64,000 nt of DNA from Vezdaea acicularis. Its lineage: Eukaryota. Of the stretch, positions 541 through 44,243 are shown one piece after another. A model generated the notes under the pieces. It made no database searches. It was not told the DNA's origin and saw nothing but the letters and a program-made list of their open reading frames with translations. The position numbers were made by a program, and so were the translations under genes. How positions within the stretch are numbered: the first letter of the stretch is position 1; every line of letters begins with the position of its first letter. The stretch spans positions 1 to 64,000 of the forward strand of contig JAPEUI010000025.1 in assembly GCA_026025075.1 (NCBI GenBank), in the 5' to 3' direction.

Positions 541-3500
541 TTATAGCAGTTGCCACAACTGCGGTTCTATTGGACTGTCTTCCTGCAGTCCTTCTTCTTC
601 CGGTAGAGCTTCAAATTGGTCTAACGGAGCTGCCACCGCGTGATTTGGATTGTTTTCACTACCGTAAATCCGTTTACGGCCTGGCCCCTTGGGCATCCGC
701 CATCCGCGAGTTACTCTTCCTTCAACTCGAGCCTGTTTTAGCCGATCACCACCTACAAGGAGCTCTAACTTCTTCTTCTGAGGAGTCTCTAGCTCGTATG
801 TATTCAATGGCATAGCTCGACGGACTCGGTAGGGTCCAAACCATTTACCTTGCCACTTCAGCTGATTCTCCGCCCGTACCAGTACATAGTCATCCGGTTT
901 GTACTGGATAGGGGTAATAGCTGCGTCCCATGCTTGCTTGTTCTTTAAGGCACGTTCTTCTGTGTTTCGTAAAGCTTCCATACGGAGTGTTTCAAATAAC
1001 GGAAGCTTGTCCTCCCGTACATTGTCCGTCAGTAGAGTTATCCCATTCTCGTCTATTGGTAATCTAGGTTGGCGTCCGTAAAGCATATAGAATGGTGAAA
1101 AACGGGTAGTACTATGCGTACGGATACGTGCCGCAAACAATGCTTGATCCAGATACCGGTCCCAATGAGAACGTGGCCGGTTGAGCAGGTACTTTGTCAG
1201 CATGTTACCTAACGTTCCGTTAAGACTTTCAACTGCTCCGTTTGTCCGTGGGTGATAAGGAGTTGTTCCCCTATGCTTGACATTTAGTTTAGACAAGAAT
1301 TGACTCATTGCCGGAGCCCATAGGTTCCGTCCTTGGTCCGTCACAATCTCCTTTGGAGATCCGTAATGCATATAGAGTTTGTCATGAATGAACTCAGCTA
1401 GGGCTTCTGCTGTAGCATCCGGCACTGCTTTTGCTACTGGCCAACGGGTTGCATAGTCAACTGCTGTAATGATCCAGCGGTTGCCGGACGGTGTTTTAGG
1501 GAGTCTGCCAATGAGATCTAATCCCCAACGGTCAAACGGTTCAATCCGTCCACTCCATTGATGTGACGGATGCTGAACATCAGTGTGCAACCCCTGACGG
1601 GACCGTCCTGCTATTTGACAGTCCGTACAGTGCCGTACATAATGCCTTATATCTTTGCGCATTGTTGGCCACCATCCCCGTGCACTAACTAGGTTTAGCA
1701 ATGTCAACTCATTGCTGTGACCATAGTCCTTATGCAGACGGTCCAATAGATCAGCTCTTGCCCATAGGGGTAAGTAGTCAATCCAGTCCGACTCTGGTGA
1801 ATCTCTGTGACAAAGAGTTTCCATAGCTATTGTAAACTCATGTGCTCTAGAACGGAGCATATGATCAATGTTCTTGTCACCTGATAGCTTGCCGGACTCT
1901 AGATAGTCCGTCATATAGTCCGTCCATTCCAAAACATTAAGTTCAATGTTATGCAAGTAGTCAGGACGTCTTGATAGTGCATCCGGCACCGTCATTAGCT
2001 TTCCGGATTTGTGGATTATCTTTAGATTGTACTCCTCAAACTCTTCTATCCACCGGCCTAGACGTTTGGAAGGCTTACGGGTTGTCTTCATGTACTGTAA
2101 CCCTTCATGATCTGTCCGTACAATAGTTGTATGTCCGTTCTCAATGTAACAACGCCAAGCACGTAAAGCTTGCTTGATTGCCAATAGCTCCTGTTCATGT
2201 GTTGGATAACGGCTTTCTGCCGGATTGAACTTACGGCTTTCAAAAGCAACCGGATGTTCCCGTCCGTCAGCCAAGTTTGTCTGCAACAATGTAGCTCCGC
2301 ATGCATAGTCTGATGCATCCGTTTCAATGATAAAAGCTCTTTTAACATCCGGTTGTTGCAATACTGGCGCGACGGTGAGGCATTCCTTTAGTTGACGGAA
2401 ACTCATCTGGCATTTGGCATTCCATACTATAGGCTGATGTTTATGTCCGCGAGTTGCTTCCGGCAGCTTAAGCAGCTCATGCATTGGTGCTGCAATGCGT
2501 GCAAACTCCTTAATAAACCTCCGATAGTATGAGCATAAGCCTACAAATTGACGGACATGATGAACTGTCCTAGGAGTTGGCCAATCTTTGATGGCTGCTA
2601 GCTTATGCGGATCCATACGGACTACGCCAGCTCCGACAATGTGTCCGCAAAAGTCCACTTCCGTTTGAAAGAAGGAGCACTTGTCTGGCCGTGCAAACAG
2701 GTTGTTTTCTAACAAGATCTGCAATACAATCTTGAGATGTTCCATATGCCCCTTTTCATCTTGACTATAGATGAGGATGTCATCTAGATAGACAACCACA
2801 AATTTGTCTAGACATGACCGTAAAATGTCATTCATAAGCGTCTGAAAGGTTGCCGGAGCATTGGTTAATCCAAACGGTAGTACACGGAACTCAAACTTGC
2901 CAATACGGGTATTGAAGGCTGTCTTTGGTATATCAGCATCCGCCACACGGATTTGCCAGTAGCCTGACAGTAGATCAACCTTTGAAAACACTTTAGCGGA
3001 CCCTATTTGATCCAAACAATCTTGTATCTTTGGTAACGGATAGCCGTTCTTGACGGTCACATTGTTTAATGCCCGGTAATCAACACACATCCGCCATGAA
3101 TCATCTTTCTTCTTGACAAAGAGTACTGGAGAACCCCAAGGTGAATGAGATGGACGGATAAGATCCCGTTCTTCTAGGTAACGGATCTGTCGGGCCTGTT
3201 CCTCTAACTGTTGTGGAGTCAGAGTATAGGCACTCCTATTGATAGGACATGCATCACCCGTATCAATGTGATGATCCACATAACGCTTTGGCCCTACCCC
3301 TGTAGGTAGTTCAGTACAGAATACTTTCATTAACGGTCCCAACTCTTCCTTCAATGACTCAATGTTCTTGCCGGACTTGTCCGTCAGCTTGTCGGATGTG
3401 TCTCCGTCTATCAACATGTATAGAACTCCTTGCCCCTTATGTTGTAACGTCCGTCTGACGTTCCGCCATCCGCTAGCTGGTATATGATTATACTCTAATG

Positions 3501-4146
3501 TTAACGGATGTGCTAATGAGTCATAAAGAGCATGCTCATAGCTGTCCTGCTGAATAATGAGTCCGCAAGCTTTGTAGTCAATAGTTGGTTGATATTGGCG
3601 GAAGAAGTCCATGCCTAGGATGATATCATATTGCGCCAGATCAATGACAATAAATGTAGCTTTATCTGTAAAGGTTTGGATAGTAACTGTGCAGTTTACG
3701 GTCCCGTAAATCTGCAATTGGCTGCTGTCCGGCAGCCTAACCCCTTTATGCCCCTTTAAAGGCATAATCTTCAGTCCGGCAGCATCACTTGTGCTCCGTC
3801 TGATATACCGTCTTGACGCTCCTGTATCTGCTAGTATTCTTATGGTATGTCCGTTCACATTGCCGTTAAATACTAACAGATCAGCGTCTGCTCTGTCTCT
3901 TATGCTTAGGAGTTGATCAAGCTCCTCTATTGTCTCCCCATGGGTCTTTCTATTTTGTTCTTCAATCTCCCGTTGTCTGGCAGAATCGGACACCGCCAGA
4001 GGCCTGCCGCAAGCTCCGGAGATTTCTATCCTTCCGTCAACTTCCTTCTCTAAGTTGCGGGTACTCTCTGTAGATATGGCCTGTAGAGAAGGCGCCATAC
4101 TTGACTTAGATAAGAGCGCCAACTTATCTAAGTCCTGTAGTTTTTT
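541..4146 (-). CDS. pol: Pol polyprotein (aspartic protease, reverse transcriptase, RNase H, integrase with GPY/F module, no chromodomain), reached by -1 frameshift from gag
   Basis: Protease [35 protein letters not shown]; RNase H ETDASD; integrase H-x4-H...CTDC, DLIG/TDQG/NGAVE; WFGPY. The frame is open upstream to the slippery site at 4140-4146. Confidence 0.96.
4091..4146 (-). promoter_or_regulatory. -1 programmed ribosomal frameshift signal: A AAA AAC heptamer, 5-nt spacer, 12-bp stem and predicted H-type pseudoknot
   Basis: Minus strand reads CC-A AAA AAC-TACAG-GACTTAGATAAG-TTGGCGCT-CTTATCTAAGTC-AAGTAT-GGCGCC. A -1 shift joins gag to pol. Confidence 0.9.
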
Positions 4147-5105
4147 GGCCCTTGTGGCCTAGAGTTAGTCCGTTCACCAACTCTTCCTGTCGGACAGTTC
4201 CGAGCAATATGTCCTGGCTTATTGCACATAAAGCACAACCCCTTTCGTCGTTGGTCCGTCTTCATAGAAGGGCGTACTGGACCTGTCATCATTGACAGAT
4301 CCATAGGTTCCGGACCATAATATGGTGTTGGCGGACCAAAACCAGGACTGTCGGATCTTCTTGGTTGCTTCTGATATCGGTTATTGGGTTGACGGGGCTG
4401 AAACGTCTGAACGTTAATGCCTTCAGCTGCGTCCGCCAGCTGTATAGCTGCTGACAGTGTCACTGGTTGGGCACGTTGCACATCTATTCTTGTACGAGGC
4501 TGCAGTCCTTGTACAAAACGTGATACAGCAACTGGTTCAGATATGTTGGTATGAACCACTGACCATAACCTAGTGAAGGTTTCAATATATTCCCGTAAGC
4601 TCCGTGAGCGTGTACTAGCTTGCGTTATAGTGAAGAACTGCTCAAGCATCTTGTTGTTGCTATTGACGTCTTCAAAACGGGCTTTGAATGTCTCCTTAAA
4701 CTCAATCCAGTTATCTGACGGACTTTGAAACTGATTGCCAGCTATGGTCCGGTACCAGAACTGAGCATTGTCCGTAAGATATTGTGCTGCATAGATGACT
4801 TTTAGCTTAGAGTCTATCTGTGCTAGCAGGAGATACCGTTCCATCTTAAAGAGCCAGTTGTTGGCTCCGTCAGTATCCCTTTTGGCTCCGTCAAACTTTT
4901 CAGGGGCCTGCAACTTGGGTTTGTTGCCTGATGCATTGAGAAGCTCAATGACAGTGGCCGTATCCAGTGTATTTCCGTTGTTTGAATTCATATTAGGCGT
5001 TGACGGAGTGTCAATGGGTGGCTCTGGTGTTGACGGAGTACTGAAAGCTCTTCCACCAAAGCCAAACACGTTAGGGATGCCAAGATTACCGTCCGACGAT
5101 GCCAT
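4128..5105 (-). CDS. gag: Gag (retrotransposon capsid plus CCHC zinc knuckle)
   Basis: 325 aa with PEKFDG..., AQFWY, [16 protein letters not shown] and [14 protein letters not shown]; lies directly upstream of pol. Confidence 0.95.
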
Positions 5106-5211
5106 TTGAGTACGTTGATGGCTACAACGGGGCGTTCGCTACTATGTCTAGAGGATCTGATCGTATTTGATGTGTTTATAGGGGTTTGTGGTCCTAAAAC
5201 TCAAATAGGGG

Positions 5212-15936: not shown

Positions 15937-18900
15937 TCATATCATTGGCGCGCCTCCAGGACCCCGATTCTGTGAGTGACCTATTGACTCGAACAGATGC
16001 GAAGGAGGGATGCGGTCCATGTTGCTGTGTTTATCGTACATCTGCGTCGGGGCAGGTACATAGCCTTCACGTTTCCGACGTATGCGTTCGAAGAAGATGC
16101 CGATGACAACAAGGATGAAGATGAGCGCAAGGGAGATGGCGAGTGCGATAAGAACGACAAAGCCCACGGCGAGTTGACCACCTGAGATATCATGTTAGTG
16201 AAGCATAGCAGAGATGTGATGGAGGAAACATACCATGTGTCTTGAAGAAATCTTGTTTTTGCGAGAAGAGGGTTGCCAAGCTCCCCGGAGAGTTGTCCGC
16301 TGTATTGGCCAATACGAACGGAGACACGTTAGAGCCATTGTAAAGCACAGCTGATACATTGCCGAAGTTTGGTAGGTTTAAGGCGCCAGTGATGAGAAGG
16401 ACGGTGTTCTTGTCCATAAGTGAACTCGTTGCATGTGATTGGGTCACCGAGAGCGCTTGAAGGCCTCGAATCTGCGTGTTCGGTCCAAACTGGTCCCCAA
16501 TGGAATGCCATGTGAAGCCATCAAACATGACCAAGAAAGCGGACCCATTGAGGGATGTGCCAGCGGCCCACCATTGAGACACGTCTGCGGTTGCAGGAGT
16601 GAGAGCCGAGACGGGTCCTGGAATGGTCGAGGCTCCAACGAAAGAAGACCACACCTTCGCCTTGGTATCGTACATGGCAACAGATGTACCCGAGTTATTG
16701 AGGGTAAGGTTTCCGCCGATGATGAGCTTGTTGTTACCGGACCACATCAAATCACCGACTTCTCCGCTGAGACCACCGCCAGGCGAAACCCACTGAGAAT
16801 TAGAAGTTGCAAAAACACACACGCTTTCGCATCCAAGGGAGCCAGCAGAGTCGAAGTTTCCACCAACATAGACATCCCCTGAGCCTCCAGGTTGAACGGA
16901 TATAGCATTGACGATCACATTCGGACCAGTCAGCGCAGGTGGCTGCCTAGCATACTTGGCTCCGATGAGATCATAGACTACTAAGCCGTTGATCTTAGTT
17001 CCACTGACTGTCCCTGTAACTTCGCCCCCAGCAAAGAGGGTATCGCCGTTCACTGCCAAGGTCAAGAAGACCGAGTCAGCATCAACCCCCGAATCTAAGC
17101 CAGTGACTTGATCAGAGTTTGATCCGTTTACAAAGATGAGGTTGTTGAGAGTGGAGCCGTTGGTGGCCTTTGCGGTAAAGTGCCCTCCTAGAATAGTCAC
17201 ATTGCGATTCGAATTCTCGTAAAAGTATCCGTCAACAACACCCGTGATGTTCCGGCCTTGCAAGGCTCGTTTGCGTGAGGAGCCACCGATGTTCTGCGGC
17301 TGAATCTTGACAGGCAGCGAGCTGATTCCGGAGGTTCCTTGGGTGGAAAGAGAGATTGCGCCACTGGCACTCAATGCCTGGGAAGAAAGCGATCCTCCAA
17401 AGAGCGTTATATTTGTACCTGGCACGGCAATTCCGACCTGCAATCGTCCGCTTATTGAGGGCACCTGGGCGTTCAGGTTTTCGAGCCAGTTGTGTTGGGA
17501 TGGAACCCATACGGCTAGGCCATCGACAGGTATGGCCGGGTTGTTTCCAAAGGCAAGGATCTGATCAAAGTCTCCACTAAGACCGATCACCGTCTCCGGC
17601 TTACCAGACGTGACATTGATGGAGAAGGGCACAATATCGCACACACGACCATTGACTCCTGCTCCAAGCGCTTGCCATTTCTTGTCTGTCGTTGAGTAAG
17701 TAGCGATGTTGCTGAGGTCGTCGACCCCGCCTTTACTGGTGTTGGTAAAGTTGCCTCCAACGTAAAGAGTTTTGCCATCGGCGTAGATAACGAAGACTTC
17801 GGCATTAAGCCCGCCGTCTGCGAGTGCCGTTGCATTTCCGCTGTCTGGTATCATCATGATATTTTGGAAATCGCTTGTCGAGAAGTTTCCACCAGCGTAC
17901 GTGACCTTATCAACGACTACTAGACTGTTGATTAGAGCGCCAGTGTCGAGTCCCATTCCAGCTTTGTCGTAAACGGAGGTTGAGAAATCTGTGCTGACGA
18001 CTTGCAGGCTGGGGTTGAATTCAAAGATCCCATTGAGCCCTCCCGTCGAGTTTAGTAATTGGAATCGGACCCTTTGAGCAACAAAGTTGAGGTTGCCCGC
18101 TTGGCCGGGGCTAGGAGTCAGGGTTACAGTTGGTCTGAAAGAGCCACTGGCAGCATCCACATGTCCATTGTAGATCAGGTCGTATTTATCGTAAAGGTTT
18201 GTCTGAAAGATATCAGATTGAATCGGAGGAGTTGCTGATGTTCCCGTAGCCATTTCTCCGGTAATTGATACTCTTCCTCGTGATGCACAGCTGTTGTCTT
18301 GCGCGCAACCTGGAGTGTAGATGGTAACACTATAATTGCCGGACTGTTTGATGTCGGGTTTGAATACTACTGAAGCGGAGCCAGATGCAGTAGAAGCGTC
18401 GGCAAAATTAGCCATGAGGAATCCTGAATTGCTTTGCTGAGAGGGAGATGACGCCCAGGGACCTGTAGCTGTGGCAGTGGAGGGGAAATCGGCTCCAGCA
18501 CAGGCGGGTTCATTGAATTCGTTGACGGCGAAAGCGTAGATATCTGATGAAACGAATTAGTGAGAGACCAGTAACACAGGTAGGATAGAGCTCTTACCAT
18601 CTTCATACAACGCAATGCCATTCAAACCTGCCCCAGGACCATACCAATCAGAGATGTCGAGCTGGAAAGCGCTCATTCCGATCACATTGATGAAATGGAA
18701 GTCCTGAGGCTCGGTGGTTTGAGGTAGTGGACATCTTGCATCACAAGTCCGGTTCACGCCTTGATCATCGGTGTAGGTAAGATTCATGATGCCGTTGATA
18801 GGCAAGGCGGTGAAGCGGAATGTCTTCGTCCCCCGACCGTCTTGATTCGTGTTCCATAACCTCAGCTTTGTAGGCTGAAAGCCGAATCCGAAGCTAGCTT

Positions 18901-23856: not shown

Positions 23857-25837
23857 ATGAACGGCGATAGCTACTCTTCTAGAGGCATGGCTCCAACATC
23901 AACAAAACCTCGCAAGCCTTTGGAGACTGGTACTAACATTAAGACTGAAGCAGATGCTAGATATGGATCATCTCGCGACGCATATGTAAGTCACCAGAGG
24001 ACAATTCCTTACCCTTTAATGAACTTCTGGACACAGTTGCTAATAAAATTTTAGGGTCGAGGAGACCGAGACGACCGACGGGATCGAGACCGCCATAGAG
24101 ACAGCCGACGACGCTCTCGTTCACCAGGCCATGGCCATAGATCATCTCGTCGGGATACGGAGGTAGATTCTTATTCGTCCAGCCGTGACTACAGAGCGAA
24201 AGAACGAGAAGAGAGATACTCAGGGCGAGACCGTCGGGATGGCCGAGACGACCGAGATTGGGACAGGGACCGAGGATACTCACGGCGAGAAGCTCGGAGA
24301 GACGATGATGACAGACCTCCCAGAAGAGATAGGGATCCATTTGGTGAAGATCGACGAGGCGGACCGCGACGTGGGCCACGGGATGATTTCGGCGGAGGAG
24401 CAATGGGCGGCGGCGGTGGTGGCAGAGAGCGAAAGAAAAGCATGAGCCCTCCACCAAAGAAGAAAGAGCCAACTCCAGACTTGACGGACATAACGCCTGT
24501 ATTGGATCGAAAGCGAAGGTTGACACAATGGGATATCAAACCACCAGGCTACGAGAACGTTACCGCTGAACAGGCGAAGCTTTCAGGTAAGAATCTCAGC
24601 TAGAGAATCAATATCTTGATTACTTGATGTCAAAGCTAATCAAACTTTTTCTTAGGCATGTTCCCTCTACCAGGCGCTCCACGACAACAACCAATGGACC
24701 CTAGCCGCCTCCAAGCTTTCATGGCCCAGCCCAGCGGCGCAGCTACCAATACAGCCCTGAAGCCTTCTAACGCCAGACAGTCCAAACGATTATTCGTCCA
24801 CAATATCCCCGCCTCTGCTACAGAAGAGAGCATCATCAACTTCTTCAATCTGCAACTGAACGGTCTGAATGTAATTGAAGGCAGTGACCCCTGCATCTCC
24901 GCGCAACTATCGAAAGATCGCGAGTTCGCCCTCCTCGAATTCAAGCAATCTACCGATGCCACCGTCGCCCTAGCTCTAGATGGCATCTCAATGGAAGAGA
25001 ACGATGCTATGGAGACGAGTAACGGCACGGCCAACGGCTCCTCAAACGGCCTTTCCATCCGCAGACCTAAAGACTACATCGTCCCGTCCTTCGCGGACGA
25101 TACGCCCATGGAAGAGGGCGGCGTCTCCAGCTCCGTGCCCGACACCCAGAACAAAGTCAGCGTAACCAACATCCCGCCATACCTCAGCGATGAGCAAGTG
25201 ATGGAACTGCTCGTCGCCTTTGGCGAACTCAAAGCCTTCGTACTCGTCAAAGACCGGTCGACGGACGAAAGCCGCGGCATCGCCTTCTGCGAATACACCG
25301 ACCCAGCCTACACCGACATCGCCGTCGAAGGCCTTAACGACATGGACATCGGCGACCGCAAACTGCGCGTCAAGCGCGCCAGCATCGGCAACCAGCAAGC
25401 CTCCGGCCTTGAAATGAGCGTCAACGCCATGAGCATGCTCGCCGGCACCACCTCGCAGGACCTCGACGAAGGCCGCGTCCTGCAGCTCCTCAACATGGTC
25501 ACCGCCGAAGAACTCATCGACCAGGACGACTACGACGAGATCTGCGAGGACGTCAAGGAAGAGTGCCAGCGCTATGGCCCCGTCCTCGACATGAAGGTGC
25601 CCCGCCCCACTGGCGCGAGCAGGCAGGCCGCCGGCGTCGGCAAGATCTTCGTCAGGTTCGATACGCCCGAGAGTGCGGGCAAGGCCCTGAGGGCCCTCGC
25701 GGGCAGGAAGTTCGCGGATAGGACCGTCGTCACGACGTTCTTCTCTGAGGTGAGTCCCGTTTGCTTTTTAGGCGCCGTCAAAAGTATGCTTGTTGCTAAC
25801 GCTGTTGCAGGAAAATTACGAGGTCAATGCATGGTAG
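23857..25837 (+). CDS. U2AF2: Splicing factor U2AF large subunit (U2AF65/Prp2/Mud2 family)
   Basis: RS/RD-rich N-terminus, ULM RKRRLTQWDIKPPGYE, two RRMs and a UHM (GVGKIFV..AGRKFADRTV). Exons 23857-23884, 23954-23985, 24055-24586, 24656-25749, 25811-25837. Confidence 0.95.
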
Positions 25838-26271
25838 GGGAGATGGAATTGGGGATCTGTTACTTAGTTCCGAAAGATCTTCCAGGGAGAGTCTACATGC
25901 CACACTCGCCGTGCCAACATCCATCTAGGGCCTCAACGGCTACTTCTACCTGGGCTGTTTCAGTGGCTCTACAGGTACTCCTTTGTAATTCTAGGACGCG
26001 TCACCATTTCACACAAATGCAAGCAAGCGGGCTCTAAATAAATGGGGTGATCAAAAGAATGTGTTTGTGCTTAGTATGCAAGAAGAAGAGCAGGGACTAA
26101 GTCCCCAATGTGAGGGGGAGAGACACAAACGCAAATGATCGTGATGTATCCATGCAAACAAACGACAGAGCGATTGCCCATTCGCTGTGGAATAAGGGCT
26201 CCTCCGCCAAACCCAAAACCCCGAGACCCAAACCAAAACACCTGGAAGAGTCCTCCCTTTTATTCCCTTAA

Positions 26272-26434
26272 TGTTGATGCCTTGAATGCCTCAGCAGGCA
26301 GTTTGTCCTTAACCTCTGTAAAGTTCATATTCGAGTCCTGAGTCCCTCCCTCCCTTCCTTCCTTCCTTCCTTTCACGTCGATGGCGTGAACGCCTCAGCA
26401 GGCAGCCTGTCCTTGACCTCCTCGAATTTCATAT
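26272..26434 (-). repeat. Diverged direct duplication (~59 nt, 104-nt offset) of the last mex67 codons, separated by a CCTT-type microsatellite
   Basis: 26376-26434 encodes MKFEEVKDRLPAEAFTPST; 26272-26330 encodes MNFTEVKDKLPAEAFKAST. Confidence 0.85.
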
Positions 26435-28027
26435 ATGCCGCTTGCAGGTTCCAGGCATTGTCATTAAGACACTCCCCTGAGAACTGCAGCGTCATGCCGG
26501 TGAGGTAACTGAGATCAATCGCCTTCCGTTCTTGGTCGACTTGATCCTCTGTCTTGTCGGTAGTCGGCACGCCGAAGCCCTGGGGGATGATGGGCTTAGG
26601 TTTGGTTTCGGCAGAGTTGCTAATGGTGGTCAATTGAGGGAACCACAGCTGTAGGGTTGTTCCGAAGGCTGGGTCGTTCTTCTCGATCGGGTTGTTTTGG
26701 AGGTAGATAAGTTCGAGTTTGGAGAACTTGTTCTTCCAGTAGGAGAGTGCCTTCAGGTCTGGGATGCAGTTGTCTGAGAGGTCTAGGTTCTTCAGACCTG
26801 GGAATTGTTGTGATAGTGATATTATGGTAGAGACGGACGGGATTGCATTTGAAGCGAGTGTGACGCTTTCGACAGCCGCGTCCCTCTTCTCGGTTGTAGG
26901 GAACGCGTCATCGAAGACGACCATGAGTGCTTGGAATAGCTTTGAGTGGCTGGTGCCATTGAGGTCGAACAAATTCTCGTCCTTGAGTGCAATGAGGGCT
27001 TCATCTTTTCCCAATGCAGCAAGATCTAATAGCTTGCTAGCTGGGTTGAATCGGCGATCGAGAATTGACTTGAGAACCGCTTTGGTTGAAATCTTCGGCG
27101 TTTCTGACTTGAGCAGTTCGGATTTGTCATTTTGCACCTGGTGTAAGGTTAGCATTGGGGGGACTTAATTTGAGGGTACGCGGAAGACTTACTCTTGGTG
27201 AGCGTTTGTTCACTTCTTCGATCAAGAGCACCGCTCCCGCGAACGTGAATTTGTTTAGGCGAAGAACTTTAGAAGTGTCCTCTTGCTTTAGGTAGATGAC
27301 AAATGCATCACCTTCACAGAATGACTGCACAGAAAATAGATCAGTACACCTCGTCAGTGTCGGACGGCGGGTCCTAAGGAGGCATGGCCAGAAAGTCGCC
27401 AGGCAGCTCTTGTGGTCATCGTTCTGAATGTAGCAAAGTAACGATAGTGACCTAGAAGAGTGGGCTTTGTTCCTGCTGCCTCCTATGCTGGTGAGAGCAT
27501 CGGCAACGTACCTTCTGGATCTTGGCGGAGTGGGGTGACTCTCGGTTTCCAGTGGCTTTCCGCTCGATCCAAGCGCTGAGGGATGCACGGCCAGCGTCAG
27601 GGCTATCTGCGATCTTGCTGTCAAGGTATCCCCGAATGGCGACACGATCCATTTCAGCCAGCGGTGATAAAGACCTTTGACGTGTTCTCGGTCTTGAATT
27701 GGGGGCTTCTTGGCGTGTTCTCGGACTTAGGTTGAAACGTTCTTGGGCGGCTTCGTCTTGTAACGCTCTCTTGAGGGCGTTGCGATTTGCAGTGGAGAGT
27801 GCCCTTTGGGGACCTCCGCGAGAGTGATGCTCTGAGGTGCTCCGCCCGCTACGATGTTTGAGTAGACCTGTCGCTGAACCGCCCATGTCGACATCGCCAT
27901 CTCTGTCAACTCTTGTTGAGGCTCTACCGGGGCGCTTCTTGTCAACGCCTCGACCGGAGAGACTGGCTTTGTGGCCCAGTTTGGATCTTGAGTGTTGGAG
28001 CTTCGAGAGATTTTGATTGCTCGACAT
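26373..28027 (-). CDS. mex67: mRNA export factor Mex67/NXF1 (470 aa): basic N-terminus, RRM-like, LRR and TAP-C/UBA, with no NTF2-like domain
   Basis: RVDRDGDVDMG, LRLNKFTFAGA, RRFNPASKLLDL, LRRs (SVTLASNAI, LKNLDLSDNCI, LIYLQNNPI), TAP-C TGMTLQFSGECLNDNAWNLQAA..LPAEAF. Exons 28027-27512, 27324-27193, 27137-26373. Confidence 0.88.
27377..27484 (-). other. Extended imperfect RNA hairpin inside mex67 intron 1
   Basis: Nested complementary blocks: AGGAGGCA/TGCCTCCT, AAAG/CTTT, CCA/TGG, CTCTT/AAGAG, GGTC/GACC, ATCGTT/AACGAT, closing a 16-nt loop. Confidence 0.65.
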
Positions 28028-29271
28028 CCTATTTTTACTTTCTAGGGGGCGATTCAGGTGGAGGTGGTGCGTAGTTGTGTAAGGGTAGGGAGATTATGAG
28101 CGGCTTCGCTTGAGGAGGTCGTGTGTGTAATTGAGGTTTGTGAGAGCGTACAAGAACGAGCGCGTTGTGTGATTGTATTGTGTGTGTGTAGTGCAAGAAC
28201 GTTTCGTGTAAGTGTGGTTTGAGAACGTATTGTATAGAAGTATTGTGAGACCGTGACGTGAGCGTGAGCGTGAGAACGTGATTTGTAAGCGTGTAGCGAG
28301 AGCGTGACGTAGCCGTGCTATTGAGTTGGCAGAGACTTGAGAGCGATGGATCTGAGCGGAAGCGGCTGTGTGACTGGAATTGGGAGAGAGCCGAGAGTGT
28401 GAGAGGTTTTGCAAGCGGACTTGTAAGTATCAGTACGCTTGCACAGAAGTTGCAGTAGAAGCTGGCCAATAGCGACTGTGTTTGGCAGTAATTTTGCTTC
28501 GACGAGTTGGATGGTGGATGCTTCTTGCTGCTTTCTGCTGGGAGAATATGTAGGAGAGATGGAGGAAAAGGGCAGGGGGTCCTGCCTTTATAGTCGGTGG
28601 ATACTCGCTGTACCAGCCATTTTTTATTAGCTGCATGGCGCTATAGACGATTTAGCGTTTATTACTCACAAAATTTCTGCCTTGTCGCCCGAAAATACAC
28701 CCTTCCGGCTCAGAGCTCTTTCCTTATTCGGGGTTTCTAGGCCGCTAAGCACCACGCATGTGACGGCCGTGACAGCTGCAAGTGTGCTCGAGGGCGCGCA
28801 GCGCGCAGAAGCATGTGAATTTTCGGAGAGTCGGGTGAAGGAGAGGGTGATGAAGAAGGTATAATGGGTGATCGTGAGGTCTGAATCACAGGGTTGAGGC
28901 TCTGTCGTAAGGATGTCTGATTAGTGGCGTAAATTATCTGCCGGTCTCCGCAAGAGGAATGGCGTGACAGGGGTGAGATCGCGGGTGAGACATGGGCCAA
29001 AAAACCGAAAATGTGGCCTCTGGATGAGGTACTCGAGACGAAATATTGTACGAGTACAGCAATGCATTAAGAATTCTTGATATCTGAGCTATTGGGTCTC
29101 AACAGTAGCTTGGCCTTTCTCATGTCTCGGCGTTGAATCGTTAATTTACGTGCAGTACGAGCTTCTCAGGGGGATTACCTCGCGCGGTTGTCTCTGCGAC
29201 GAGCTCTCCTTCACACTCGGACGCAGTACCCTGACAGGTCATCCAGCATCATATACGATTGAAATATCAAA

Positions 29272-30744
29272 ATGCCCGCCAAATCACGGTTTACACGCCT
29301 TGACGCGTTCACAAAGACTGTGGAAGATGCCCGGGTGCGCACAACTTCAGGGGGTATCGTTACAATCACCTCTCTGATCATCCTATTCTACCTAGTATGG
29401 GGCGAATGGGCGGACTACAGGAGGGTAGTGGTACATCCTGAGCTCGTAGTAGATAAGGGTCGAGGTATGCCAGCGCACAGCGAATACTTGTGGACGTGTC
29501 TAACACCCTCGCAGGAGAGAAGATGGAGATTCACCTCAATATATCCTTTCCCCGCATGCCCTGCGAGCTACTCACCCTTGACGTGATGGACGTCTCAGGC
29601 GAGCAGCAAGTAGGCGTCATGCACGGCGTGAACAAAGTGCGATTAGCACCAGTGAGCCAGGGCGGCCACGTCATAGAAGTAAAGGCATTGGACCTGTGCG
29701 TCTCCTCTCCCTCAACATCCTTCATCAAGCACTTTTCCCCAGCGCTCTTCACCCGCCGCTCCCCCCCAGCGTACTTCCCCCGAAGATTTCTCCAGCTAAC
29801 GAATCCCCAGGCACGAAGAGTCCGCCGCACACCTCGACCCCTCTTACTGCGGCAGCTGCTACGGTCCGCCAGCACTCCCTACAGCCTCCAAGCCCGGCTG
29901 CTGCAACACCTGCGAAGAAGTACGCGAAGCCTATGCGGCCGTAAGTTGGGCCTTCGGACGGGGCGAAGGCGTCGAGCAATGCGAGCGCGAGGGGTACGGC
30001 AAACGGCTGGACGAGCAGCGCAACGAAGGGTGCCGGATCGAGGGGGGAATCCGTGTCAACAAGGTGGTCGGCAACTTCCACATCGCGCCGGGCCGTAGCT
30101 TCAGCAACAATAACATGCACGTGCACGACCTGGAGAACTACTTCAACAGCCCGGCCGAGGTGCCGCATACCTTCACACACGAGATCCACGGCCTCCGCTT
30201 TGGCCCGGAGCTGCCAGAGCGCGTGACCCGCCAGGCCATCGCCGCCGGCACCCCCTGGACCAACCACCACAGCAACCCGCTCGACGGCACCGCCCAGACC
30301 ACCGACGACGCCCAATTCAACTTCATGTACTTCATCAAAGTCGTCTCGACGGCGTACCTACCCCTGGGATGGGAGCCGAAGTTGCGCGCGCGTGATGCCA
30401 CGCCCGACCCCGTCTCCATCGGCGCCTACGGCCACGCGGACGACGGCCGCATTGAAACCCACCAGTTCAGCGTCACCAGCCACAAGCGCAGTCTTATGGG
30501 CGGCGACGACGCTCAAGACGGCCATAAGGAGCGTCTCCATGCCCGCGGCGGCATCCCCGGCGTCTTCTTCAGCTACGATATCAGCCCCATGAAGGTCATC
30601 AACCGCGAGGCAAGGACGAAGTCTTTCACCGGCTTCTTGACGGGCGTCGCGGCCGTTATTGGGGGGACGTTGACGGTGGCGGCCGCGGTGGATAGAGGAT
30701 TGTATGAGGGTAGCATACGCGTGAAGAAGCTGCATCAGCGCTAG
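29272..30744 (+). CDS. erv46: COPII vesicle cargo receptor Erv46 (ERGIC3 family)
   Basis: LDAFTKTVEDARVRTTSGG, PCELLTLDVMDVSGE, YCGSCYG..CCNTCEEV, GNFHIAPG, GGIPGVFFSYDISPM. Introns 29465-29514 and 29696-29810. Confidence 0.95.
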
Positions 30745-30958: not shown

Positions 30959-32241
30959 TTACAGCTTCGCCCGCCCCCCCTCGACCTCCCGACTTCCCTG
31001 ACGCCTCTGCAAGCCCTCCACCAGCTCCCACGCCAGCTCCCCAAACCGCCCCACCATACTCGCGTGCTCGCCTGCCCGCTCCGAACTGGCTTGCCCCCGT
31101 GCCAACCGCGCTTTGATCCCTTGACAGATGACAGCAGCGCGCAACATGGCGAAAGCCGCGCCCCACTCCAAGTCCGGGGCGGGATCCCAGCCAGCCGCCT
31201 GTGCATACCAGCTCAAAGCCTCGTCACGGGAGGGGATGCCGGGGGTGCAGTCGCGGACGGCGAAGGAGCAGGCGCTGCGCGTGTAGGATGTCATGCGCGG
31301 ATGTGAGGCGAGGAGGTAGGGGGTGAGCAGGTTGGAGAGGTCACTTAGGGGGTGGCCGAGGGTGCTCATTTCCCAGTCGAGGATGGCGATGACGCGTGGG
31401 GCGGTGGGGTGGAAGATGAGGTTGTCGATTTTGTAGTCGCCGTGGATTAGGGCGGTGCGGTCGGTGGGCTGGGTGGCGCGGTCGCTGAAGAAGGATGTAA
31501 GGGCGGAGAAGTGTGGGATGGCGCCCACGGGGGTGGAGGTGGAGAGATCGAGGGTATCGGCTTGGGCAGGGGAGAGGGTCCGAAAGGTCTTCAGTTGGCG
31601 GTTGTAGAAGTGGAAGGGGGCGCCGTAGTCGGTGAGGGAGAGAGAGGCGGGAGGGGCGCGGTGGAGCTTTGCGAGGGTGAGGATTGCCGCATGCCACCTG
31701 TTTTTGCTAGAGATCAGCTATGCTTCGATAATTTGCAGTAAGGGTGTGTCCAAGGAGACCACTTACAGCTCCCGCCGCTGCTGCGGCCCGACACCAGGGA
31801 AGCCCGGATCCTCGAATATCCTACCGTCGACAAACTCCATCACGTAGAAGGGCGTTCCCAGGATGGTTTCATCCTCGCAGAGGCCATACGCCTTCGGCAC
31901 AGGCACCTCGGTCCCCTGCAGCGCATGGATGACACGGTATTCCCGCTCGACCTTGTGCGCCGTCTTGCTGACTAGCTTGCCGGGCGGCTTCTTTCGTAGG
32001 ACAAAGTGATTCCCATTGTGGTCGATGAGTTTGTAGGTGGGATTTGATTGTCCAAAGCCAAACTGGAAAGACAGTTGTTAGTGTGAGGAGGGCCACGTGG
32101 GGGCGGGCTGGGGAGAGGGAAAGGGTAGGAAATTGCAAGTACCTGCTGGATGCTAATTGGGGTCTTGATGGAGGGAATGTGCGTGTCGATATACCGCTCC
32201 AAAGAGGGAACGTCAATGGGTTGCCGCACGGCGCCCGCCAT
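30959..32241 (-). CDS. APH/choline-kinase-like phosphotransferase (ACAD10/11 N-terminal-like), probably peroxisomal
   Basis: [65 protein letters not shown]-terminal -AKL (PTS1); two introns. Confidence 0.9.
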
Positions 32242-40536: not shown

Positions 40537-40629
40537 TTTCGCGAAGCTCGCGTGCCGGCGTTCCCAAAGCTTGACGCGAGATCGTGTAAAGCGCTCGCAT
40601 CTGCCTAGCACCAACTCGGCTAGCGCGAA
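40537..40629. promoter_or_regulatory. MCB/SCB-like cluster in the divergent PCNA/SF3B1 promoter
   Basis: TTTCGCGAA (40537), TCGCGT (40548), ACGCGA (40574), CGCGAA (40624). PCNA genes are established MBF targets in fungi. Confidence 0.55.
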
Positions 40630-40730
40630 TTCTATGCCAAGCTTTCTCCTTCGACCGAGCAAATCTTACACATCTCGCCGCATCGATTTCTACTTGTCCA
40701 CAGTTTCACTTCTCCGCGCTCACATTCACC

Positions 40731-43700
40731 ATGTCTGAAGGTAACTCCAACATTGGCAAATCCAATAAGAACAACTTGGCTAACTTTTCAGCCGAATTTG
40801 AGGCGATTCGCCAGCTCCAGGTCGAAAGAAACACTAAGAAGCCGTTGTCGCAGAGAGAGACAACCAAGGCTTCCCTCACGGAGACCTTTGACAAGAACCT
40901 ATATAGTGATGACGACCGGTCAAACTATGTCACATCCATCCCTGTGGATGGTGAAGAAGATGAAGATCCGGGCAACAGACTGGTGGGACAATATACGGCT
41001 ACCAAAGCCCAAATGAACGAGTTTGCAAGTGGCGACGATGACATCCTCATGGGCCAAGAGAAGTCTGCTGCTATTGAGCAGCGCGAGACTGACTACCAGA
41101 AGAGGAGATTTGATCGAGTTCTTACTCCTACTTCCGAACAGTCCTCCTACAAAGAAGCTATGGCGACGAGAGAGATTGAAAGGGAGGAGCGACGAGTCCA
41201 AGAGCTGATTGCCAATCAAGACCCAGCGTCTCAGGCTGCATTGCAGGATAGCAGCGACAAGGAGAATGCTGGTGCGACACGCAAGAGGAAGCAAAGGTGG
41301 GATGTCAGCACAGAAGAAGCCACGGAGAAGAAGCGCAGTCGATGGGATCAAACCCCCGTGCCTGGGGAGGAGCCGAAGCGACGATCAAGGTTCGACGTTG
41401 CGCCAGCTGCTACGCCAGTAGGGAACCAAGGCCTTGCTACTCCTATGCACCCTTCACAGACTCCAGCTATGCCTACAGCGTTCGGCACGGACATCTCATC
41501 TCGAAACGCCCCTCTTTCTGATGAAGAGTTGGATCTCATGCTTCCAAGTGAAGGCTTCAAGATTCTCGACCCACCTCCCGGATATGCACCCATTCGAACA
41601 CCTGCAAGGAAGCTCATGGCTACGCCTGCAGCAAGTGCCGCTGGTTTTGGGGGGTTCATGATGCAAGAATCCGAGACGCCACGCCTTGGAAAGCAGCTTC
41701 CAACAGAGATACCCGGTGTTGGAGATCTACAGTTCTTCAAAGCTGAGGATATGACCTATTTTGGAAAACTCGTGGATGGTCAAGACGAGAACACTTTGAC
41801 CGTCGAAGAATTGAAGGAACGAAAGATTATGCGACTTTTACTGAAGGTCAAAAACGGAACGCCTCCAATGCGAAAAACTGCTCTGCGTCAATTGACAGAC
41901 AATGCTCGTCAATTTGGCGCTGGCCCTCTCTTCAACCAAATCTTGCCAATTCTGATGGAACGTTCTCTGGAAGATCAAGAGCGCCATCTACTCGTCAAAG
42001 TAATCGATCGTGTTCTTTACAAGCTTGACGATCTCGTTCGGCCTTACGTGCACAAGATACTCGTCGTCATTGAGCCGCTGCTGATCGATCAGGACTACTA
42101 TGCGCGTGTCGAGGGTCGAGAAATCATTTCGAATTTAAGCAAGGCCGCTGGCCTGGCTCATATGATCAGTACGATGCGGCCTGACATTGACCATGTTGAC
42201 GAGTATGTGCGAAACACTACCGCTCGCGCCTTTGCTGTTGTCGCATCAGCCCTCGGCGTACCAGCTCTCCTCCCTTTCTTGGGTGCAGTGTGCCGCAGTA
42301 AGAAATCATGGCAGGCTCGTCATACTGGGGTTAAGATCGTCCAGCAAATTCCCATTCTTATGGGCTGCGCCATTCTACCACATCTCAAGGGTTTAGTTGA
42401 TTGCATCGCCAACAACTTGAGCGACGAACAGGCGAAGGTGCGGACGGTAACGTCATTGGCAATTGCCGCCCTTGCGGAAGCCGCGAACCCCTATGGTATC
42501 GAGAGTTTCGATGATATCCTCAACCCTCTTTGGACTGGCGCTCGTAAGCAACGGGGCAAAGGCCTTGCTGGCTTTCTCAAGGCAGTGGGCTATATTATCC
42601 CGCTCATGGACGAAGAATATGCAAACTACTATACCAGCCAGATCATGGAAATCCTTCTTCGCGAGTTTTCTTCTCCTGATGAAGAAATGAAGAAAGTGGT
42701 CCTCAAGGTCATATCGCAATGTGCTGGCACGGAAGGTGTGACTGCGGGTTACCTGAAGGAAAATGTGCTGAACGAGTTTTTCAAAAGCTTCTGGGTTCGA
42801 AGAATGGCCCTAGACAAACGCAATTACAGACAGGTTGTTGAGACCACCGTCGATCTCGGTCAAAAGGTCGGTGTCGGTGAGATCGTGGAAAGGGTTGTGA
42901 ATAATCTTAAAGACGAGAGCGAAGCTTACCGCAAGATGACTGTTGAGACTATCGAAAAGGTTATTGCGGGGTTGGGTGCGGCGGACATTGGCGAGCGTCT
43001 TGAAGAAAGATTGGTTGACGGCATCCTCCATGCTTTCCAGGAGCAAAGCGTTGAGGATATTATCATGCTCAATGGCTTCGGTACGGTCGTCAATGCCCTC
43101 GGAACAAGGTGCAAGCCATATCTTCCACAAATCTGCAGTACCATCCTATGGCGACTCAACAACAAGTCCGCAACTGTGCGCCAACAGGCGGCCGACTTGA
43201 TCTCTCGAATTGCGATGGTTATGAAGCAGTGTGGCGAGGATGCTCTTATGGGCAAGTTGGGCATCGTGCTCTACGAATATCTAGGGGAGGAATATCCTGA
43301 AGTGCTGGGTTCTATTCTTGGTGCTCTTCGATCTATCGTTACTGTCGTCGGTATCAACTCAATGCAGCCACCTATCAAAGAGCTGCTCCCTCGGCTTACT
43401 CCAATTCTGCGAAATCGACATGAGAAAGTGCAGGAAAATACGATTGATCTTGTCGGACGTATCGCCGACCGCGGTCCTGAGAGCGTAAACGCTCGAGAGT
43501 GGATGCGAATCTGCTTCGAGCTCCTCGACATGCTGAAGGCTCATAAGAAAGGTATCCGACGCGCGGCTAACAACACGTTCGGCTTCATTGCCAAAGCTAT
43601 CGGCCCTCAGGACGTGCTTGCTACTCTGTTGAACAACTTGCGAGTGCAAGAGCGGCAGTCGCGTGTCTGTACAGCTGTCGCGATAGGCATCGTTGCCGAG

Positions 43701-44243
43701 ACTTGCGCGCCTTTCACTGTCCTCCCCGCGCTGATGAACGAATACCGCGTCCCCGAATTGAACGTCCAGAACGGGGTCTTAAAGTCACTTTCATTCCTTT
43801 TCGAATATATCGGCGAGATGGCAAAGGACTACGTTTATGCTGTCACCCCCCTCCTCGAAGACGCTCTCATCGACCGAGACCAAGTTCATCGACAGACCGC
43901 AGCATCGGTTGTGAAGCATGTCGCGCTCGGTGTAGTCGGTCTAGGATGTGAAGACGCGATGCTCCATCTGCTCAACCTGCTCTACCCCAATCTATTCGAG
44001 ACTAGCCCCCATGTCATTGACCGCATCGTCGAAGCTATCGATGCCATCCGTATGGCAGTAGGGAGTGGTTTGGTAATGAACTACGTTTGGGCGGGGCTCT
44101 TCCACCCTGCACGCAAGGTACGACAGCCGTATTGGAGGCTCTACAACGATGCGTATGTACAAGGGGCTGATGGGATGGTACCGTACTATCCGAACCTGGA
44201 CGAGGAGAGGATCGACAGGCATGAACTGGCGATTGTGCTATAA
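40731..44243 (+). CDS. SF3B1: U2 snRNP splicing factor 3B subunit 1 (Hsh155/Prp10)
   Basis: ULM motifs [25 protein letters not shown] and HEAT repeats to the C-terminus. A 51-nt in-frame intron at 40741-40791 (GTAACT..GCTAAC..CAG) is likely. Confidence 0.98.

Follow-up and report, generated by a model that had tools for sequence, protein, structure and literature searches.

A mex67-like gene of Vezdaea acicularis encoding a protein without the NTF2-like domain: domain organization, locus and fungal relatives

Introduction

Can a gene that has lost the coding part for a whole domain of Mex67 still be the mex67 gene of its fungus? The question is raised by a mex67-like gene on contig JAPEUI010000025.1 of Vezdaea acicularis (assembly GCA_026025075.1), of which positions 1 to 64,000 were analysed here; this stretch of 64,000 nucleotides is referred to below as the window. 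A first-pass annotation, made from the letters alone, had noticed that the LRR domain encoded by this gene is joined to the TAP-C/UBA-like domain with no NTF2-like domain (NTF2L) in between. To our knowledge, Mex67:Mtr2 (NXF1:NXT1) is regarded as the receptor that universally carries out bulk mRNA export in fungi and animals. In yeast, the NTF2-like domain of Mex67 also carries a function in pre-60S export. Natural loss of exactly this domain, with the rest of the protein under constraint and with recurrence in fungi, would provide a means to learn which of the module's functions an organism can do without in vivo. From the evidence below we lean slightly toward reading the gene as the resident mex67 orthologue, functional but reduced or specialised, and independent of Mtr2.

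Domain organization of the mex67-like product

The mex67-like gene extends over 28027..26373 of the minus strand and consists of three exons, which give 1413 nt after splicing and a product of 470 amino acids, the length given by the first-pass annotation. Both introns carry consensus fungal splice signals. The product of exon 1 comprises a low-complexity N-terminus, the conserved motif R-x-D-R-D-G-D-V-x-M and the start of an RRM-like domain, ending in KIQK; no Pfam match was obtained for this exon. The end of the LRR (LQNNPI and LQLWFPQLTTI) and the pre-UBA linker (PQGFGVPTTDKTEDQVDQE) all lie inside the uninterrupted exon 3, of which a 260-residue open reading frame (ORF) is recorded in the database as P0028. 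The spacing between LTTI and PQGFG is 12 residues, against the approximately 10 first estimated.

The domains were then identified at the level of sequence. In exon 3, Pfam detected TAP_C (residues 209-250, E 5.6e-14, 51.9 bits, cut-off 21.3) and LRR_NXF1-5 (residues 22-153, E 1.1e-05), the latter with 25.5 bits under its cut-off of 30.5. The match of exon 2 to RRM_9 (E 0.0015, 18.8 bits) was also under the cut-off of 25.9; in alignment with canonical Mex67, the RRM-like block fits well on both sides of the exon 1/2 junction. No NTF2 or NXF_NTF2 family was detected in the product at E<=1. Alignment with six canonical Mex67 proteins gave a continuous match that begins at the RxDRDGD motif and takes in the RRM-like block and the LRR, followed by a single clean gap of about 225-230 residues located exactly at the canonical NTF2-like domain. 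After the gap the alignment resumes at the pre-UBA linker 'GFG.P..K.E.QV' and proceeds into TAP-C, which keeps the conserved Trp loop (NAWNL). The place taken in canonical proteins by about 225 residues of NTF2L and its flanking linkers is occupied by the short linker listed in Table 1. Local domain hidden Markov models (HMMs) were built from ten canonical Mex67 proteins. Of these, the LRR (E 3e-50) and UBA (E 3e-18) models matched the window's protein and the NTF2L model did not.

Structural comparison gave the same order of domains. Sequence matches in the PDB were found for the LRR (4wp6, 6e-25; 4xm4; 4wwu), also to 8hbn, and for the UBA (4wp2, E 1.3e-4). In an AlphaFold2 model of the LRR-TAP-C part, made with a 25-row alignment, two confident domains were predicted at residues 18-172 and 195-250 (predicted local distance difference test score, pLDDT, >90), with pLDDT<50 for the linker residues 176-192. 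By Foldseek, the modelled LRR was superimposed on the LRR of Chaetomium Mex67 (4wp6; template modelling score, TM(target), 0.86; root mean square deviation, rmsd, 2.4), and the UBA on that of Chaetomium Mex67 (4wp2_F, TM(target) 0.87) and of the Tap UBA-FxFG complex (1oai_A, 0.81). These observations altogether indicate that the product is ordered as RRM-like block, LRR, short disordered linker and TAP-C/UBA, and that the whole NTF2-like domain is gone, as the first-pass annotation had read it.

One way to keep the classical receptor would be a split system, in which a separate NTF2-like gene product, together with Mtr2/Nxt1, joins the short Mex67 non-covalently. When the 64 kb window was searched in its six frames with the NTF2L HMM, nothing matched (best E 0.074, 9 bits); the short linker, predicted to be disordered, offers no recognisable docking element, and we consider such a system very improbable. 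Look-up in the ESM Atlas with NTF2L of the canonical Endocarpon protein (P0227) gave no fungal stand-alone cluster, all scores being below 0.9 and hence uninformative, and the scores for the window's protein (P0001) were uninformative for the same reason.

Integrity of the junction and of the reading frame

Parts of the 64 kb stretch are contained in ten public sequencing runs, the best four of which are labelled as moss metagenome; runs X4-X6 and X8-X10 contribute small shares only. Contigs of four runs (X1, X2, X3, X7) were compared with positions 25800-28400 of the window. The X1 Logan contig (3732 nt) spans 25800-27172 with eight substitutions and one 2-nt deletion relative to the window, and the X2 contig (270 nt) spans 26428-26697. 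Each of the two contigs crosses the LRR-to-TAP-C junction, and neither joints nor loose ends were reported. For X3, both sides of the junction are present and the junction itself is not bridged. X1-X3 represent different samples of one study, and single-nucleotide polymorphisms (SNPs) set them apart from the window, so that they do not simply repeat its own reads. The suspicion that an assembly collapse or chimera had removed the NTF2L-coding part is rejected by the bridging of the junction in two other samples, leaving it a negligible probability, and the gene is real.

Coding differences between the window and these four runs were found at 26622, 26816 and 26892, and all three are synonymous. 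Within the 573 nt past the stop codon there are five substitutions and one indel. Among 24 other family members, 45 columns of LRR and UBA reach a conservation of 85% or more; the window's protein keeps 40 of these, and the 24 others keep 78-100%. The synonymous polymorphisms and the kept columns point, as evidence of a limited kind, to constraint on the gene.

These results bear on the possibility that the gene is a recently crippled copy in decay, whose null-like deletion allele is tolerated by a fungus able to dispense with Mex67. Deletion of mexA is viable in Aspergillus nidulans, according to a passage of PMC3192866, the branch of the window's protein is long, and a relic duplication with a microsatellite at the 3' end of the gene marks local instability. 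Decay is nevertheless quite improbable in our estimate: the frame of 470 codons is open and its splice sites are intact, the coding SNPs and conserved columns are as just described, the same allele occurs in three samples of one study, and the same layout is conserved across genera of Chaetothyriales.

The relic lies about 45 nt beyond the TGA of the gene, behind a (GGAA)n-like run (~26343-26372), and gives a weak match to the UBA HMM at profile positions 36-50 (E 1e-3). It is a small, old tandem duplication of the 3' end of the gene.

Genomic locus and ancestral intron

Metagenome contigs were scanned for the neighbourhood of mex67. With the window's protein alone no relative was found in these contigs; with a 10-row alignment 71 mex67 loci were obtained, which were then searched with the proteins of the window's neighbouring genes and with the local HMMs. 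An ERV41/46-type gene is located upstream of and divergent to mex67 in 13 of the 71 loci, as in the window. Among these 13, four (L032, L034, L035 and L036) look like one organism assembled repeatedly. Eleven of the ERV-linked loci are canonical, one is cut off after the LRR, and one (L055) encodes a short form, 56% identical across its whole length to the Chaetothyriales-type protein P0154. The next gene of the window (30959-31717) is also common to three loci (L023, L050 and L060). Judged from best matches, canonical loci linked to ERV belong to Eurotiomycete-like and Lecanoromycete-like fungi.

Intron 1 is located at the same K|S position and in the same phase 0 in the canonical, Eurotiomycete-like loci L035, L044 and L029, with a broadly similar length of about 180-210 nt as read off the printed stretches. 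In these three loci LRR, NTF2L and UBA follow one another in a single frame. The simplest history is that mex67 at its ancestral locus lost the whole NTF2-like domain by an in-frame deletion of about 225 codons within the large 3' exon. Taken together, the ERV neighbour, the conserved intron 1 and the grouping with Eurotiomycetes described below lead us to read the gene as the lineage's own mex67; in locus, intron and tree alike it takes the position of canonical mex67 of related fungi.

Recurrence of the short form among fungi

In an exhaustive HMMER search of 1.84 billion representatives, 345 matches were obtained at E<=0.001, of which the best 150 were examined with the local domain HMMs. 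LRR and UBA without NTF2L were found for 41 of the 149 non-self representatives among these best matches. On the level of rows, 189 were examined: 108 carried all three domains, 28 lacked a match to LRR or UBA, and 53 lacked NTF2L, the last including the window's three entries and nine cluster duplicates. None of 13 short forms rechecked with Pfam contained an NTF2 family at E<=0.01, and the control, the Endocarpon protein P0227, scored 2.8e-43. Several short forms are single uninterrupted ORFs on contigs, like P0028, and therefore not all of them are exon-skipping errors. Short forms with a named source were from Hypomontagnella submonticulosa, Phlyctema vagabunda, Massarina eburnea and a Trizodia metagenome-assembled genome (MAG), and further from Cladophialophora immunda, Fonsecaea erecta and Chaetothyriales sp.

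Word-based searches gave a second view of the family. Among longer proteins 26 matches were found, which cover 59-69% of the query with 39-46% identity and all carry PF22602; at similar length nothing was detected beyond P0028, the ORF of the window itself, and three partial proteins from Aureobasidium. No close orthologue above 46% identity was found in these word-based searches. In a search with the C. immunda protein, 24 of the 27 matches, at 41-91% identity, lack PF22602. The 24 are from Cladophialophora, Fonsecaea, Capronia, Rhinocladiella and Exophiala, plus one labelled Elasticomyces, and many are named 'mRNA export factor MEX67'; the three canonical ones are the protein of Endocarpon pusillum and two others. 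The presence of the short layout across these genera at such identities implies its long conservation.

Dozens of fungal protein records in public databases thus show the same domain layout, and some of them bear the name MEX67. No description of a fungal Mex67 without NTF2L was found in searches of the openly accessible literature, and among the papers listed for Chaetothyriales genera together with Mex67 none contains 'Mex67'. Domain loss is not addressed in passages of PMC3032688. The first-pass annotation had proposed an undescribed system; this holds in so far as no paper describing the short form was found, and has to be given up for the layout itself, which public records already contain. 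We place the gene in a class of short Mex67 that recurs among fungi and has so far gone undescribed; its best-sampled clade is in Chaetothyriales.

Several individual records deserve mention. A short Mex67 labelled Elasticomyces elasticus (P0208), which we take to be a Dothideomycete, is 56% identical to the Cladophialophora protein and was found amid the Chaetothyriales matches; it may owe this position to mislabelling or contamination of the record, or to an unusual history of the gene. The 642-residue model from the Trizodia sp. MAG (P0058) carries LRR and TAP-C without NTF2L, followed by about 150 non-homologous residues, and probably overruns the end of TAP-C. A clade of Pleosporales type consists of short forms only (L051-L054; P0108, P0167, P0144, P0173, P0128 and P0141); it is sister to the canonical proteins of Delitschia and Zopfia, and Massarina eburnea is its sole named member. 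The P0108 cluster of this clade has eight members on contigs of up to 82 kb. P0029, a short form of 327 residues with a 76-residue gap between LRR and UBA, and the canonical P0032 are close sisters with branches of 0.21 and 0.28 (ultrafast bootstrap, UFBoot, 99), and the pair may stem from a loss that happened very recently, from a splice isoform in a transcript assembly, or from recent duplication.

Phylogenetic position

A maximum-likelihood (ML) tree was constructed from 35 proteins and 534 columns (IQ-TREE, LG+F+G4); the NTF2L columns drop out of this tree because they are filled in under 60% of the rows. The window's protein was placed inside Eurotiomycetes, with a support of 99.9 in the Shimodaira-Hasegawa-like approximate likelihood ratio test (SH-aLRT) and a UFBoot of 99. 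Here it is sister (81.4/93) to a group of the canonical Endocarpon Mex67 and the Chaetothyriales short clade (100/100). We read the host as a Eurotiomycete near Verrucariales and Chaetothyriales. When the window's protein and the Chaetothyriales clade were forced together, the loss in log-likelihood (delta lnL) was 3.7 and the tree was not rejected by the approximately unbiased test (p-AU 0.22); under the posterior mean site frequency (PMSF) model the forced tree was even better than the quick free tree. One ancient loss common to Chaetothyriales and an independent loss are both possible from these trees.

In a tree with more fragments and 306 columns, in which placement is weak, the window's protein pairs with the short form P0061 (UFBoot 74). 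A pairing with the Trizodia short form, seen by FastTree, had a support of 0.0 and was gone in the ML trees. Short forms of Pezizomycotina are scattered among classes and tend to adjoin canonical forms of their own class, and by rough parsimony about 20 changes of state were counted on a FastTree of 163 rows. Loss of NTF2L would, on this distribution, be recurrent, and the pattern suggests repeated origins.

Extra copy or resident gene

The main competitor of the resident orthologue is an extra, specialised paralog in a genome that would hold a canonical Mex67 at another place, the short copy having a side role such as titrating adaptors, serving selected transcripts or acting as a regulator. 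Many short forms are single tips beside canonical forms of the same class, for example P0043 (Hypomontagnella, next to Apiospora), P0050 (Phlyctema) and the P0029/P0032 pair, and this is the pattern expected from lineage-specific duplicates. The canonical proteins P0097 and P0143 moreover branch between Endocarpon and the Chaetothyriales short clade in the 306-column tree. The window's gene stands, however, at the ancestral locus with the ancestral intron, the short form of L055 is likewise at an ERV-linked locus, and no second Mex67-like sequence was found within the 64 kb window. An extra paralog is in our judgement the rather unlikely, yet by no means negligible, explanation.

Several observations weigh against the resident, functional orthologue and must be set beside the evidence of locus and intron. 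The coding polymorphisms on which constraint was judged are few, being only three. The sole evidence of expression is one contig of 206 nt, inside exon 3, from the RNA run X7 (lichen metatranscriptome); it could be DNA carry-over, and is too little to show transcription or splicing. The gene has evolved fast: its terminal branch measures 1.08-1.3 substitutions per site, two to three times the median of 0.46. With canonical Mex67 proteins the product shares no more than 37-46% identity, and the long branch and the low identity would also suit an extra copy that is relaxed or neofunctionalised. Duplication can leave either of the two copies at the original locus. The lack of any canonical Mex67 from Herpotrichiellaceae among the C. 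immunda matches is a weak result, as the word prefilter missed known relatives (P0097, P0146, P0104 and P0110, with at most four common five-residue words), and is therefore no proof that the Chaetothyriales genera lack a canonical copy. Since two FG-binding sites are needed for Tap-mediated export, as stated in a passage of PMC4488659, a protein with one site may not be an export receptor at all.

With these points taken into account, the resident orthologue is still held by us to be somewhat better than an even choice. Among the three readings offered by the first-pass annotation, an Mtr2-independent Mex67 of the lineage's own is the one that synteny and intron favour, while the split system is left without support.

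Neighbouring features of the window

Positions of the gene parts and of the nearest conserved neighbour are listed in Table 1. A U2AF65-like gene with an RS-rich N-terminus and RRMs is located at 24055-25770 (+), convergent with the mex67-like gene; U2AF65 was found next to mex67 in none of the 71 metagenome loci. The SF3B1 gene at 40590-44243 (+) is 12.5 kb apart from the mex67-like gene in the window. SF3B1 lies immediately downstream of canonical mex67 in seven loci (L011, L016, L017, L020, L027, L041 and L067), all of one Dothideomycete-like group, which suggests an old mex67-SF3B1 linkage, rearranged in the window. Because this adjacency is confined to one such group, it is no help in deciding whether the Pleosporales-type short clade is a dispersed paralog. 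At 541-4158 and 4128-5138 (-), a Ty3/gypsy-type pol frame (protease, reverse transcriptase, RNase H and integrase), open over 1205 residues, adjoins an ORF of 336 residues; the element may be young. An in-frame stop at 18557 between two Rax2 ORFs sits in an ordinary intron.

Table 1. Features of the mex67-like gene and its divergent neighbour in the window
Feature	Position	Strand	Evidence
Exon 1, 172 codons	27512..28027	-	Sequence; alignment to canonical Mex67
Intron 1, 187 nt, GTACGT...CAG, phase 0, between K and S	27325..27511	-	Sequence
Exon 2, 44 codons, RRM-like core (SFCEGDAFVIYLKQ...LLIEEVNKRSPR)	27193..27324	-	Pfam; alignment to canonical Mex67
Intron 2, 55 nt, GTAAGT...CTAAC...CAG	27138..27192	-	Sequence; frames join as in homologues
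Exon 3, 254 codons + TGA, LRR, linker and TAP-C in one open frame	26373..27137	-	Sequence
NXF/Mex67-type LRR domain, exon-3 residues 18-173	26619..27086	-	HMM, PDB sequence matches, Foldseek, pLDDT
29-residue linker (ISNSAETKPKPIIPQGFGVPTTDKTEDQVD)	26532..26618	-	Alignment gap; pLDDT; no NTF2L match
TAP-C/UBA-like domain, exon-3 residues 203-250	26388..26531	-	Pfam TAP_C, PDB, Foldseek
Relic copy of last 58 nt of coding sequence, non-coding, 46/58 identical, would read MNFTEVKDKLPAEAF...	26273..26330	-	Sequence; X1 contig spans relic
ERV41/46-type gene (COPIIcoated_ERV), divergent from mex67-like gene	29800..30744	+	Pfam E 4.4e-81

Proposed role of the short Mex67

What could a Mex67 of this layout do? 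In canonical proteins NTF2L binds Mtr2/p15, NTF2L and UBA each hold one phenylalanine-glycine (FG)-binding site, and RRM, LRR and NTF2L jointly bind RNA, according to passages of PMC4488659. For the resident orthologue without NTF2L, the retained RRM-LRR module might still contact RNA, messenger ribonucleoproteins (mRNPs) or export adaptors, and binding of FG-nucleoporins, perhaps also of ubiquitylated THO, would be left to the single UBA-like domain. The protein could not pair with Mtr2/Nxt1 into the classical heterodimer and would have one FG-binding site instead of two, which amounts to half the pore-binding valency. A weakened or specialised, Mtr2-independent export adaptor is the role to be expected from such a protein. 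Mutants of A. nidulans deleted for mexA, nxtA or both are viable, as reported in a passage of PMC3192866; the pathway is thus non-essential in a related fungus. As filamentous ascomycetes have no absolute need of the Mex67 pathway, the loss would be tolerable.

A further proposal is that the short protein is the sole Mex67 of this fungus, and likewise of the black yeasts of Chaetothyriales, export proceeding without Mtr2/Nxt1 pairing and with a single FG site. This we put forward as tentative, its probability falling somewhat short of even. If it is true, many copies per mRNP or self-association would offset the lost site, or bulk export would have moved to another pathway; these fungi would then be a natural experiment on the real need for the NTF2-like:Mtr2 module. 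The short forms may also throw light on the non-essential nature of mexA and nxtA in Aspergillus and on what takes their place. As to annotation, the name 'mRNA export factor MEX67' on records of these fungi does not denote an equivalent of yeast Mex67.

Comparison with known systems

Members with missing domains are present among the NXF paralogs of animals. We know of no NXF/Mex67 paralog that keeps UBA and drops NTF2L alone. The trypanosome TbMex67L resembles the window's protein in having dropped one module for binding to nuclear pore complexes (NPCs), which in that case is the UBA; all three trypanosome Mex67 paralogs keep the NTF2 domain and bind Mtr2, as described in a passage of PMC12774637. 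For engineered TAP derivatives, p15/NTF2L is replaceable if two FG-binding sites remain (Braun et al. 2002, as cited in a passage of PMC4488659). The window's protein differs from these derivatives in that it carries one UBA and no substitute for the second site.

With canonical fungal Mex67 and metazoan NXF1 the window's protein has in common the N-terminal motif, the RRM-like block, the NXF-type LRR and the TAP-C/UBA, and its gene agrees in neighbourhood and first intron with that of related fungi with a canonical mex67; the difference is the whole NTF2-like domain. The short forms of Hypomontagnella (P0043), Phlyctema (P0050), Trizodia (P0058) and Massarina (P0167), and of the Pleosporales-type loci L051-L054, pass directly from LRR to TAP-C as in the window, but are placed in other classes in the trees; some of them may be paralogs or faulty gene models. 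The short records of Chaetothyriales, such as PV07_11127 of C. immunda, show the same RRM_9/LRR_NXF1-5/TAP_C layout without PF22602 in 400-470 residues, and at only 30-35% identity to the window's protein they have a longer linker of about 40-80 residues. As the canonical Endocarpon Mex67 is closer to the Chaetothyriales clade than the window's protein is in the best ML tree, the losses may be independent. Still, both have the pre-UBA linker motif 'FGVP..DK.E', and the Chaetothyriales-type L055 stands beside the same ERV neighbour as the gene of V. acicularis.

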